A DNA stretch of 64,000 nucleotides from assembly GCA_963706715.1 (NCBI GenBank), contig CAVPNI010000003.1, positions 864,001 through 928,000 on the forward strand, written 5' to 3'. Under the pieces are notes generated by a model. It was not told the DNA's origin. It searched no databases and worked only from the letters and a program-made list of their open reading frames with translations. Every line of letters starts with the position of its first letter. Position 1 is the first letter of the stretch. The stretch comes from an uncultured Verrucomicrobiae bacterium (GTDB taxonomy: Bacteria; Verrucomicrobiota; Verrucomicrobiia; Chthoniobacterales; Xiphinematobacteraceae). Position numbers and translations under genes: made by a program. Positions 51,607 through 55,724 of this stretch are shown here, piece after piece.

Positions 51607-53637
51607 CTATTTTTTCGGACACACAATTGTTTTTTTGAGGGTTAAAGCTGCTAAATCATCCGGCCGCAAGTTAAGTGATTGATCTAACAAAGCGTCTCCC
51701 TTTTTAGGATTTCCACTCGCGATCTTTTGCCGAGCCCGCTCAAAAAAGTCCCTTGCCTGTAAAAGGTGGTCTTCCACTTCGCCACGCTTTCCCATTAATT
51801 CAAAAATTTCCACAGAATGATCGAAAAAGAATTTCTCTCCTAAGGCTCTCCACTCAAAGCTCTTTTTCGTAGCCAATCGGATTTCACCACTAGCCAAACA
51901 ATGAGTCCCAAATTGTTTGTTCATTTGTTCCAGCCGAGCAGCAATGACCACAGGTTCTCCCGCCGCACTAAAAGAGAAACGATTTTTGGTGCCAAAATTG
52001 CCTACTAAAGCAGTTCCGGAAGCTAATCCGATACGCGCTTTCAAAAGGGGCAATCCTACTTTGAGTCGTTTTTTGGAAACTTCCTGCAGCTTCTGAATCA
52101 CTGAAAGGGCTGCTAAGCAAGCGCTCATGGCATGATCTGCTTGTTCATCCAAAGTGTTAAAAAGGGCAAGTATGCCGTCCCCGAGTAACTTATCCACCAT
52201 TCCACCAAATTCTATTTCCACGGTCGGAATCACTAATTCGAAATATTCATCCAGTTGCTGGACCAACTGATTTGCCGGCAAATTTTCAGCCATACCTGTA
52301 AATCCCTCCAAATCGGACACAAAAACGGAGATCTCCTTCGGGACAGCTTCGAGATGCGCTTCCTGATTTTCTCTTAGGAGTTTACGGACCACATAATCCG
52401 GCACGTAACGCGCAAATGACTGGATGCCTTGTTTCATATGCTGCGTGGCGTTGACGAGTGCTTGTACTTCATACAACGGAGAAGAAGAGATGAGTGCCGG
52501 CTCAATTTTAAATTGAGCGACCCGTTCGAGATCCTGACTGATTTGAGAAAGAGGGCGGGCAAGTTTCGTGCTCAGTATCGTAGCAATCACAATCGCTATC
52601 AGCAGAGCCCCTGTCCCTACTTCCATGGCGAAGATGATGTTCTTTTTAGCGACATCAAGGAAATCAGATTCTCTCACTACCAGTCCGACACGACACTCGA
52701 CTTGCCCATTCAGTAAGAATTCAGTCAGTGCAGACACGTATTCCACTCCTTTCCATTTAAAAGACCGGACTGATACTTCTTGGGCGGGCCCTTGCAACTG
52801 CGGCAAATTTTCCGACATGCAGTACTCCCGCAGATCACGAGTCAAGGACAGCTCCAAGGTTGAACTCTGAGTGATGGGAACATCCTGCATGACCAGAAAA
52901 AGGAGACGGTGTTGTTTGGGGAGTAGGGTTGCCAGGGCATGCTGAATGGCTTGGAGCGAAAAGTCAGCGGACAGTACTCCAATGAGCCGAAAATTCTGTC
53001 CAAATATAGCGGTCACTGCGGAAATTCCGTATTGGCTTCCAAAAAATTTGTATGGCCGGAGCCAGATCACATTGCCCCATGCCCGCAAACCGGGCTGATA
53101 CCAAGGGCGTTCACGGGGATCAAAAAATTCTGATTCGGACAATTCCGGTGGGCCAAAACTGCCATCCGGAAAAACTTGCCTTTCCACCTGGTGTCCAGGT
53201 GCGAGGTTGGAGTTCATAAATTTTACGACCAAGCGTCCATCCGGTGTCCGCGCAGCTCCCACGTAGTGTCCCGTCTCGCCGAGTGCCATACCGAGGCCGG
53301 TCAAACAAACTGGAGAGCGGAGACGCTCCGCAAAGATGGAACCGATTTGTACAACATCAGTCGTCGATATCAGGCCCCTTTGAAATAAGCTCTGAAACTC
53401 CCGGACTATAGACGCATTCGGATGAAGGAGCTGACGGATGTCGTTAGCAACTCCAGCGACCGCCACCTGATAATGGTCTTTTTCGATGACTCGAAGAGCG
53501 CTCTTCGAACGAAAATATGCTATCGATACAATTAGCCCAATTGTAATCACCAAGGTTGCCAAGGTTAAGAGAATTAGCACCCATACAAATCCGATATGCT
53601 GAACTTTCGCCTGCCTGGCGGATGATTTCGTACTCAT
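51607..53637 (-). CDS. Membrane Cache-HAMP class III nucleotide cyclase (keeps metal-binding Asps, lacks catalytic Asn)
   Basis: FDPRERPWY, HAMP, SDLEGFT, DKLLGDG and GEPVVIAARL. Confidence 0.88.
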   Translation of the reverse strand: MSTKSSARQAKVQHIGFVWVLILLTLATLVITIGLIVSIAYFRSKSALRVIEKDHYQVAVAGVANDIRQLLHPNASIVREFQSLFQRGLISTTDVVQIGSIFAERLRSPVCLTGLGMALGETGHYVGAARTPDGRLVVKFMNSNLAPGHQVERQVFPDGSFGPPELSESEFFDPRERPWYQPGLRAWGNVIWLRPYKFFGSQYGISAVTAIFGQNFRLIGVLSADFSLQAIQHALATLLPKQHRLLFLVMQDVPITQSSTLELSLTRDLREYCMSENLPQLQGPAQEVSVRSFKWKGVEYVSALTEFLLNGQVECRVGLVVRESDFLDVAKKNIIFAMEVGTGALLIAIVIATILSTKLARPLSQISQDLERVAQFKIEPALISSSPLYEVQALVNATQHMKQGIQSFARYVPDYVVRKLLRENQEAHLEAVPKEISVFVSDLEGFTGMAENLPANQLVQQLDEYFELVIPTVEIEFGGMVDKLLGDGILALFNTLDEQADHAMSACLAALSVIQKLQEVSKKRLKVGLPLLKARIGLASGTALVGNFGTKNRFSFSAAGEPVVIAARLEQMNKQFGTHCLASGEIRLATKKSFEWRALGEKFFFDHSVEIFELMGKRGEVEDHLLQARDFFERARQKIASGNPKKGDALLDQSLNLRPDDLAALTLKKTIVCPKK

Positions 53638-55724
53638 AATCGTGTCTTGAGTTCAGCCAGGTACCACGTGGTCAGACAATCACCCGGACGTAATGCCAAA
53701 GCATCCAAGAACCGAGTTTGCGCTTTTATCCAATTTTTGTTTTTCCATTCCGTGAGCCCTTGTTCAAACTGGTTTCTTGCCTGGAGAAGATCTACAGGTA
53801 CGGCGTCTTTTTCTCCCAGTAATTCCCAAACAGAAACTTGACCGGAGCGTCCTGTTACCTGCTGGGCCCCCAGGAAACGCCATTCAAACGGGGCGGAAAT
53901 CTGGGAATGAGCTTCCTCACCTACTAAGATGCAAAGATCAAGCGAGAAGGCTAACTCCATCAGTCTATGAGCAAGATTGACGGCGTCCCCCATCGCTGTA
54001 TAGGCAAAGCGGTGCTTAGTGCCGATATTTCCAACCAGTGCGGTGCCTGTGTTGATGCCAAATCGGATTTGATGGTGGTCGGAGATTTCTACACCTTTCA
54101 GCGCACGTTTCCATTCATCACACCAACGCAAAGCAACCACACAGGCTGCATCCGCATGGTTCAGGACAGGACGAGGCTCATTAAAAAGAGCCATCATTCC
54201 GCCTCCTCCGAAATATTTGTCAACCGAACCCTCCATCTCAACCAGTTCGGTGCCAATCGTGAAGTATTCTTGCAATAGCCGGAGGGATTCCGGGATATTT
54301 TCGTCGGACCGCCTCATTTCTAATTCGGAAAACAAGATAGTAATGAAGTATTCTTTTCCTTCTCGGCTGGCGTCACGGTGGGTGGCGATTAATTCGCGTA
54401 CGACACCAACGGGCACGTACCGCCCGAAAGATCGCAGTGCCCGTTTGAGTCGCTCGACTGCATCCGAGACTACAGCCGTTTCTCGGACGTGAGAATGCGG
54501 TGAAGGGGCCTCCGGAATGTCAAAGGCGGCTACATGTTCCAGATCAGTACTGAGTTTCCGGAGCGGACGCGCAAGCCAATTGCTCACCCATATTGAGAGG
54601 CCTGCCGCTATTAAAAGTGCACAAAGCCCGAAGGCGATTGTGGAGCGGAGATTCGCCTTGGCAAGTTTGAGGAATTGTTCTTCCGGAATCACCTGCGCCA
54701 CCGTGCACCGCAATCCCCCTTGTAAATCAATTTCAGCCCATGCAAGCTCAAAAGGGCTTCCATTAAATGTCATCGAAGTCATCCGAAATTCTCTTTTAGG
54801 ACCGGTACGCCGAGTGCGATCCATAATCCGTATTGCAGCATCGCGAAGAGAATTTTCGGAAATATGCGAAATCGTGGTATGTTGTGTTAAGACCCAATTA
54901 TTGTCGCCGAGTATTACAAATAGCAAACGATCGTGCCATGGCTGGAGATACGAAAGCTGTTCCTTTAATTTGTCCGCCGAAGAATGCACCATAAAAATCC
55001 CCTTCGGGCGTTTTTTATTTTCGGCGCGTCCCAGATTTTTTTCTTTCTCCTTCTTTCCCTCTAAGGATTCCTCTTTGTCAAAAATCAAAACCCCCACACC
55101 CAAACAATAAATAGAGCGCCCAAAATTCGGAAACGGTCTCGTCCAGACTAACCTGCCATCACCCTTCATGATATCCTGAAACCATGGACGGATTCGAGGA
55201 TCGTAAGGTTTTTTCCAGTATGGATCATCAGCAGGGGTAAGCTTCCCCGCAGGGGAGACAATATCGCTGGTTTGCTTTGCCAGAATCCCTGACAATGCGC
55301 GCCGGATCACAATCTTCCCCGGGAATAACATTCCATTCGCACAAACATAGTCTCCCTCTGGCAAGGTCGTGTAACAAATCTCATCCACGTCGTCTTCTTG
55401 GCGCAGCCGTTCAGCAAGAATAAAAGCCAGTTTCCGCATATCGTCCTGAGGGATGAATTCTTTGGAGAGAAGAACCTGAAACTCTCGGGTGATCAGAAGA
55501 ACGGACTCAAAAATCCGGCTGGTTTGGTTTCGTACCTCTGAAATTGCTAGGAAATAGTATTGGGTGTTGAGCTCCGATATTGCATCCCGAGACGATCGAT
55601 ATCCTACAATGGCAATGATTCCAACAGTGGTGAGGAGCGTACCAAGCACAAGCGTAAGGATGAGGGCACCCATTTTTACCACTTTGGGAAATAGCGGGAT
55701 AAAACGTAAGGGGGATCCGCTCAC
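53634..55724 (-). CDS. Membrane Cache-HAMP class III nucleotide cyclase (lacks metal-binding Asps, keeps K/T/N/R)
   Basis: YDPRIRPWF, HAMP, FSELE, DKYFGGG and YTAMGDAVNLAHRL. Confidence 0.88.
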   Translation of the reverse strand: MSGSPLRFIPLFPKVVKMGALILTLVLGTLLTTVGIIAIVGYRSSRDAISELNTQYYFLAISEVRNQTSRIFESVLLITREFQVLLSKEFIPQDDMRKLAFILAERLRQEDDVDEICYTTLPEGDYVCANGMLFPGKIVIRRALSGILAKQTSDIVSPAGKLTPADDPYWKKPYDPRIRPWFQDIMKGDGRLVWTRPFPNFGRSIYCLGVGVLIFDKEESLEGKKEKEKNLGRAENKKRPKGIFMVHSSADKLKEQLSYLQPWHDRLLFVILGDNNWVLTQHTTISHISENSLRDAAIRIMDRTRRTGPKREFRMTSMTFNGSPFELAWAEIDLQGGLRCTVAQVIPEEQFLKLAKANLRSTIAFGLCALLIAAGLSIWVSNWLARPLRKLSTDLEHVAAFDIPEAPSPHSHVRETAVVSDAVERLKRALRSFGRYVPVGVVRELIATHRDASREGKEYFITILFSELEMRRSDENIPESLRLLQEYFTIGTELVEMEGSVDKYFGGGGMMALFNEPRPVLNHADAACVVALRWCDEWKRALKGVEISDHHQIRFGINTGTALVGNIGTKHRFAYTAMGDAVNLAHRLMELAFSLDLCILVGEEAHSQISAPFEWRFLGAQQVTGRSGQVSVWELLGEKDAVPVDLLQARNQFEQGLTEWKNKNWIKAQTRFLDALALRPGDCLTTWYLAELKTRL

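Follow-up and report, generated by a model that had tools for sequence, protein, structure and literature searches.

A tandem pair of receptor cyclase genes with reciprocal active-site losses in a Verrucomicrobiae genome: a probable obligate heterodimeric class III adenylyl cyclase

Organisation of the locus

The window analysed in this study is a stretch of 64,000 nucleotides from the genome of an uncultured Verrucomicrobiae bacterium (3.04 Mb, 4 contigs), and the subject is a pair of adjacent genes on its reverse strand, here called A and B, which encode two membrane-anchored class III cyclases with complementary losses of catalytic residues (Table 1; positions are those of the window). An earlier interpretation made from the letters of the DNA only, referred to below as the sequence-only reading, had reported two cyclase genes overlapping by ATGA, and both open reading frames (ORFs) and their overlap were recovered. 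The junction sequence is ...CGA TTA TGA / ATG AGT ACG, and this overlap implies that translation of the two genes is probably coupled. The public gene call of A (P0001) begins 17 residues later and gives a protein of 679 aa, whose start would be the ATG at 55673. The gene converging on the end of B encodes a P-type metal ATPase and the gene diverging from the start of A a YacP-type NYN protein; because of this arrangement, A and B were considered to be a two-gene operon. In scans for promoters and terminators the counts lay near those of the shuffled background, and no use was made of them.

A and B are about 30% identical overall and share one plan, namely a transmembrane (TM) helix, a double-Cache-like sensor, a second TM helix, a helical linker and a class III cyclase domain. 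Both matched the Pfam family PF00211 (Guanylate_cyc) above its cut-off of 21.9 bits (A, 30.8 bits; B, 39.9 bits), which places them in class III.

Table 1. Coordinates of the cyclase pair, its domains and a candidate cyclic AMP (cAMP) receptor in the window
Feature	Position	Strand	Description
Gene A	53634..55724	(-)	696 aa from GTG; 'C2-like' subunit, lacks both metal-binding Asp
A periplasmic sensor	54651..55598	(-)	aa ~43-358; double PDC/dCache-like alpha/beta
A cytoplasmic helix-loop-helix linker	54384..54575	(-)	aa ~384-447; HAMP-like shape, no Pfam HAMP
A cyclase homology domain	53805..54362	(-)	aa ~455-640; E467, K503, G508, R554, T576, N583, R587, G625-R626
A C-terminal three-helix tail	53637..53795	(-)	aa ~644-696; family consensus conserved
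ATGA overlap	53634..53637	(-)	stop of A (TGA) overlaps start of B (ATG); genes share 4 bases
Gene B	51607..53637	(-)	676 aa; 'C1-like' subunit, lacks Asn and hairpin Gly-Arg
B periplasmic sensor	52636..53517	(-)	aa ~41-334; dCache-like, aligns to PctA ligand-binding domain
B cytoplasmic helical linker	52348..52566	(-)	aa ~358-430; packs on the linker of A in the heterodimer model
B cyclase homology domain	51787..52347	(-)	aa ~431-617; D442, K483, D487, R535, S557, V564, R568; 2-aa deletion
Stand-alone cyclic nucleoside monophosphate (cNMP)-binding protein	20208..20732	(+)	174 aa; no other PF00027 match in the genome (3.04 Mb)

Distribution of the catalytic residues between A and B

The catalytic positions were mapped by alignment to solved cyclases and to 70 relatives (Table 2). 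It had been claimed that A lacks both metal-binding Asp residues and keeps the Lys, Thr, Asn and Arg, and that B, with both Asp residues and the phosphate Arg in place, lacks the Asn. Both claims held, with all of these residues falling in the expected columns and V564 of B standing in the Asn column. The beta1-alpha1 loop of A is degenerate throughout, reading FSELEMRRS against the canonical FSDxxGFT, and contains deletions as well. B has also lost the hairpin Gly-Arg, which the sequence-only reading did not list. In mammalian cyclase structures the hairpin Lys/Arg lies in the half that carries the Asn and Arg, and it contacts the triphosphate. If this role applies here, the hairpin deletion in B is a further complementary loss.

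Table 2. Residues of A and B at the catalytic positions
Position	A	B
First metal-binding Asp	E467 (column at least 90% Asp)	D442
Purine-selecting Lys	K503	K483
Second metal-binding Asp	G508 (column at least 90% Asp)	D487
Phosphate Arg	R554	R535
Thr/Ser position	T576	S557
Transition-state Asn	N583	V564 (column at least 90% Asn)
Transition-state Arg	R587	R568
Hairpin Gly-Arg/Lys	G625-R626	2-aa deletion

The residue set of a self-sufficient homodimer, with both Asp residues and the Lys, Asn and Arg in one chain, was found in neither protein, and A and B together present the split of catalytic residues over two chains that is typical of the C1/C2 type. The Lys/Thr pair is presumably that of the ATP-specific class IIIb enzymes, and cAMP is the product predicted from it.

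Conservation in orthologues and in single-gene relatives

Four sequences were assigned to the A family (P0001-P0004, of which P0002-P0004 are 74, 63 and 57% identical to A) and four to the B family (P0022-P0025, with identities to B of 83, 65 and 62% for the other three). Failure of orthologous pairs to conserve the complementary pattern had been named in the sequence-only reading as a ground for refutation, and the pattern was present in all four members of each family. The two Asp columns of the A family contain E/E/E/G and G/G/G/S, while its Lys, Thr, Asn, Arg and hairpin Gly-Arg are invariant. No B-family sequence departs from the two Asp residues or the phosphate Arg, and all four have lost the hairpin; drift is seen at the Lys (K/K/Q/K), Asn (V/V/V/T) and Arg (R/R/R/Q) columns. 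Each paralogue has kept constant precisely the residues that a composite site would need, with drift at the remaining positions. Chance is an implausible source of this pattern because the reciprocal substitutions recur in 4/4 orthologue sets.

Adjacency of the two genes and the 4-base overlap were conserved in all three loci for which the DNA was examined (the window, genome G004 and metagenome contig L013), and L013 also keeps the NYN and M23 neighbours. P0004 and P0025 are presumably adjacent too, as their contigs are of equal length (14,022). A related-locus search gave a single locus among genome contigs and a single one among metagenome contigs. Among the five genomes of the window's family, the pair was present in two (G000 and G004), and no match to A or B was detected in the other three, which comprise two genomes of 0.9 Mb and one that is 73% complete. 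The two small genomes (G001 and G003) belong to the window's genus and are each about 0.9 Mb in one contig and 99% complete, as against 3.0 Mb for the host genome, a difference that indicates strong genome reduction in some members of the genus.

A wider survey covered 201 genomes of the same order, where other families have full-length relatives as single genes; 18 of these loci (L016-L033) were examined with 1.5 kb flanks. Only one ORF matching A or B was present at each of the 18 loci, and all 18 singletons are fully canonical, five of them (L016-L019 and L025) with Ser at the Thr position. At a larger scale, 152 sequences were scored, namely the best 150 representatives of a library of 1.84 billion proteins plus A and B, and the signature D-K-D-R-T-N-R was found in 114 of them. 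Within this set, an aligned metal-binding Asp is missing only in the A family (P0001, P0004 and P0060, a fragment whose alignment covers the second Asp column only, with Gly there), and the Asn is missing only in B and P0023. Two rows are incomplete: the first Asp is gapped in P0130, and P0122 ends after the second. In three otherwise canonical sequences (P0069, P0086 and P0133) the transition-state Arg is replaced by Ala, Gly or His, and these proteins could, from their sequences, be halves of further pairs.

Origin and selection

In a quick maximum likelihood (ML) tree, the A and B families were sisters among the singletons of the order (Shimodaira-Hasegawa-like approximate likelihood ratio test, SH-aLRT, 80), a grouping which joins two long branches: the stems of the families measure 1.5 and 1.18 and the tips 0.07-0.29. 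The trees were re-run in FastTree with A or B omitted in turn and with the longest rows, P0007-P0009, dropped. Each family on its own attached at the same point, by L016-L019/L025 (support 96 and 86), and this common attachment point indicates a recent duplication. The data fit a course of events in which a canonical receptor cyclase was duplicated in tandem once, changed in a burst and then came under constraint. The origin of the pair is probably recent, at about genus or family level, and appears from these trees to be independent of that of the eukaryotic C1/C2 cyclases.

The ratio of non-synonymous to synonymous substitution rates (dN/dS) was estimated against the L013 orthologue only, as comparisons with G004 were saturated (dS 1.9-3.4 or undefined). 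For A, dN/dS was 0.19 overall, 0.23 in the sensor and 0.11 (at dS 0.73) in the metal-less cyclase domain, which is the most constrained part of the protein. The value for the sensor of B was 0.20. Both genes are under purifying selection, and A is not a decaying gene.

Domain architecture and sensors

The sequence-only reading had described both proteins as TM-Cache-TM-HAMP-cyclase. The cyclase part of this description stood, as reported above. The HAMP part did not, in that no Pfam match to HAMP (PF00672) was obtained for the linker of either protein, even at E-values up to 10. In the model of A, the linker consists of two helices joined by a loop of 14 residues, and the linkers of A and B pack AS1-to-AS2 in the dimer model described below. 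'HAMP' is a reading of this shape, with no family match behind it, although the linker may, judging from the model, work like a HAMP domain.

For the Cache sensors, the outcome was mixed. The Pfam scores for dCache_1 (PF02743) were below the gathering cut-off of 45 bits (A, 23.4 bits; B, 20.9 bits). The assignment was supported by phmmer matches of both sensors to solved dCache sensor domains (E-values from 5e-6 to 2e-3, the best being 5e-6 and 8e-5), by the precomputed PF02743 matches carried by the orthologues P0003, P0004 and P0025, and by the fold model of A. This AlphaFold2 model (mean predicted local distance difference test score, pLDDT, 89.9) presents, in order, a TM helix, two alpha/beta modules, a TM helix, the 14-residue loop, a helix and the cyclase fold. 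Foldseek matched the N-terminal 488 columns of A to the dCache chemoreceptor model 9a65, with a likeness also to 9a69, and matched the cyclase part to CyaB of P. aeruginosa (3r5g; target-normalised TM-score 0.83, root-mean-square deviation 2.7).

Several features of the sensors were recorded alongside. A carries an insertion of about 19 aa, rich in Lys and Glu, at residues ~218-238 (window ~55010..55070, reverse strand); it occurs only in the host genome, is lacking in the three orthologues and was modelled with a pLDDT of 57-69. A DPRxRPW stretch is kept in both sensors (A ~174-182, B ~172-180). Further along, B and most canonical relatives retain a Tyr, a Tyr and an Asp aligned with the ligand-binding domain of PctA; in the A family these positions are occupied by Phe, Phe and, in the host genome, His. 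On the assumption that these residues belong to the amino-acid-binding motif of dCache domains, B may still bind an amino-acid-like ligand, and A may sense something else.

Structural model of the proposed heterodimer

The linker and cyclase regions (A 384-650 and B 358-626) were modelled as a complex, each with an alignment of 70 rows. The A:B model scored 0.66, against 0.02 for the best of three controls. It passed a mark that 116 of 157 solved complexes attained, as did 2 of 215 mismatched pairs, and this pass may come from likeness to solved class III dimers. At least 92% of the contacts agreed between runs, and the pLDDT of the partner was at least 82. The contacts in the linkers join A 391-399 with B 393-404 and A 422-426 with B 370-374, and those between the cyclase domains place A 503-508, 565-583 and 624-625 against B 446-447, 483-487 and 547-560.

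Interpretation of the pair

We consider it probable (about 0.7) that A and B form an obligate heterodimeric membrane class III adenylyl cyclase receptor which arose by recent tandem duplication and reciprocal catalytic loss. The sequence-only reading had already claimed a complete site for the A/B heterodimer alone, and this claim gained support from the orthologue pattern (4/4), the canonical singletons (18/18), the purifying selection, the conserved ATGA and the additional hairpin loss in B. The proposed mechanism is as follows. The ATGA coupling would deliver both chains together, and these would then pair through their TM helices, the HAMP-like four-helix linker and the head-to-tail cyclase dimer, as the model suggests. 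In the composite site, B would contribute D442, D487, the beta1-alpha1 phosphate loop (GFT) and R535, and A would contribute the adenine-selecting K503 and T576, the transition-state N583 and R587, and the hairpin G625-R626. The pseudo-symmetric second site, made of E467 and G508 of A with K483, S557, V564 and R568 of B, would bind no metals and would be non-catalytic. With two different periplasmic double-Cache-like sensors, the enzyme could take two inputs, and the AND gate suggested in the sequence-only reading is one way in which these might be combined.

In mammalian enzymes, the forskolin site offers a model for such a degenerate pocket serving as a regulatory site. It is possible, but rather unlikely on present grounds, that the two Cache-type sensors jointly gate the one site and that the degenerate pocket has been kept as a regulatory ligand site. 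With canonical sisters surviving in the order, the pair would on this reading capture the duplication-and-subfunctionalisation route of eukaryotic C1/C2 almost in the act.

Several observations weigh against the heterodimer or against parts of the account given for it. B in the host genome keeps both Asp residues and the Lys, Ser and Arg, and a B homodimer could therefore retain weak activity. The Glu at the first metal position of A could in principle ligate a metal; this candidate was weakened by the Gly at the same position in orthologue P0004. The structural model cannot separate A:B from A:A or B:B, and the sister grouping of the two families suffers from the long branches already mentioned, for which the tree carried a warning. 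Since only two of the five genomes of the family carry it, the pair is dispensable. Finally, an Rv1625c heterodimer built with two different receptors regained activity but not ligand regulation (PMC4821796), and regulation by two sensors can therefore not be assumed.

The strongest competing explanation is that B is the enzyme, working as a weakened homodimer, and that A is a dead pseudo-cyclase which modulates or titrates B in a regulatory or dominant-negative manner. D442, K483, D487, R535, S557 and R568 are all kept in the B of the host genome, and Ser at the Thr position is also found in the canonical singletons L016-L019 and L025. However, residues that such a homodimer would need drift within the B family, where the Lys is Gln in P0024 and the Arg is Gln in P0025, and none of the four B orthologues has the Asn or the hairpin. 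The same residues are invariant in A, and the low dN/dS of its cyclase domain (0.11) would be unexpected for a mere titrator. This explanation was judged unlikely.

Alternatively, neither protein might make a cyclic nucleotide, both being degenerate scaffolds of a receptor with another output. Canonical residues have been lost in both A and B, and a third degenerate cyclase (L003, see below) suggests that pseudo-cyclases exist in the lineage. The losses in A and B are, however, exactly complementary, and the retained set rebuilds every canonical residue once; random decay would not hold D/D/R in one family and K/T/N/R/GR in the other invariant across four sets. A scaffold role for both is very unlikely.

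Other cyclases and neighbouring genes

The host genome contains four PF00211 matches, which are A, B, L001 and L003, the latter two on other contigs. L001 has the canonical Asp, Asn and Arg and was read by eye as a soluble protein in which a P-loop region comes after the cyclase domain. L003 (G000:C1:760026-760823) is membrane-anchored and degenerate throughout: its Asp columns hold Gln and Glu, Ser replaces the phosphate Arg, and Asp stands in the Asn column. Its sequence resembles that of a pseudo-cyclase. It is kept in three genomes of the genus (G000; L007 in G002; L011 in G004). The existence of four such matches, with canonical residues in L001, would allow A or B to pair with L001 or L003 and not with each other, but the apparently soluble, P-loop-linked character of L001, the lack of metal Asp, phosphate Arg and Asn in L003, the location of both on other contigs, and the architecture, overlapping frame and conserved adjacency shared by A and B make this highly improbable, and neither L001 nor L003 is a likely partner.

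The stand-alone cNMP-binding protein (Table 1) is a candidate receptor for the cAMP that the pair would make, a link which we infer only. The ORF next after it (20753..22057, 434 aa) looks by eye like a candidate LpxC-FabZ fusion. Elsewhere in the window, an ORF of 545 aa (57508..59145, forward strand) lies in a patch of 31-34% GC, with surroundings of about 47-50%. It matched only the Rickettsia family RP853, weakly and below threshold, and may be foreign DNA.

Comparison with known cyclases

Bacterial adenylyl cyclases are described as monomers that need homodimerisation, 'a fundamental difference' (Beltz et al. 2016, PMC4821796), and bacterial class III adenylyl cyclases as homodimerising enzymes from whose monomer the eukaryotic pseudo-heterodimers were derived (Schultz 2022, PMC9552081). 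The complementary C1/C2 arrangement is treated in these reviews as a eukaryotic invention (PMC4821796, PMC9552081). No natural bacterial two-gene class III heterodimer was found in the literature searched; an actinobacterial survey (PMC2447327), covered by its abstract and references, may discuss possible heterodimers. If the interpretation of A and B is correct, bacteria arrive at the split-site design easily and independently. The pair would also be a compact and tractable experimental system, to be compared with its canonical sister genes, in which the evolution of asymmetric cyclases becomes testable, as does the joint control of one catalytic site by two sensors, a question left open by the Rv1625c chimera.

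The mammalian transmembrane adenylyl cyclases resemble the pair in that one half carries the Asp residues and the other the Lys, Asn and Arg (VC1/IIC2, 1AZS/1CJK, were among the matches of B). They also have one catalytic and one degenerate site, as is predicted for A/B, and likewise stem from duplication of a bacterial-type monomer (PMC9552081, PMC4821796). A and B differ from them in being two separate genes, presumably coupled in translation, where the mammalian enzyme is a fused chain, in having 2 TM helices and a periplasmic Cache-like sensor where the latter has 6 TM helices, and in having Thr or Ser at the purine position where the latter has Asp. The fused TM1-C1-TM2-C2 organisation of the mammalian type was not found in A or B.

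The soluble guanylyl cyclase structures 3UVJ, 4NI2 and 8HBH were among the fold matches. The alpha and beta subunits of this enzyme are two gene products that, as proposed for A and B, form an obligate heterodimer with one active and one degenerate site. Unlike A/B, soluble guanylyl cyclase is eukaryotic, soluble, haem- and nitric oxide-sensing and GTP-specific. The chytrid cyclases RGC1/2 with NeoR resemble the pair in being separately encoded, clustered receptor cyclases with different sensors, and they function only as heterodimers (PMC8815786), as is proposed for A/B. Unlike A/B, these proteins are eukaryotic and RGC1/2 are reported to have lost none of the catalytic residues, the need for pairing being ascribed to other parts (PMC8815786), whereas the need for pairing in A/B would follow from the active-site residues.

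In a bacterial enzyme, a split site has been engineered in the laboratory. Co-expression of two Rv1625c mutants that are inactive singly, D300A and R376A, restores activity (PMC4821796), and the result is a single-site heterodimer, as is proposed for A/B, in which one chain lacks a metal Asp and the other the transition-state Arg. The A/B pair, by comparison, is natural, conserved and under selection. The singletons L016-L033 of the order and the metagenomic sequences P0005 and P0026-P0028 have the same architecture, length and C-terminal tail, at about 30-36% identity, but each is one gene with every catalytic residue, and they presumably form symmetric two-site homodimers. A and B are classed here as class III cyclases and, on the comparative evidence, as a probable bacterial two-gene variant of the C1/C2 principle, outside the fused mammalian family.

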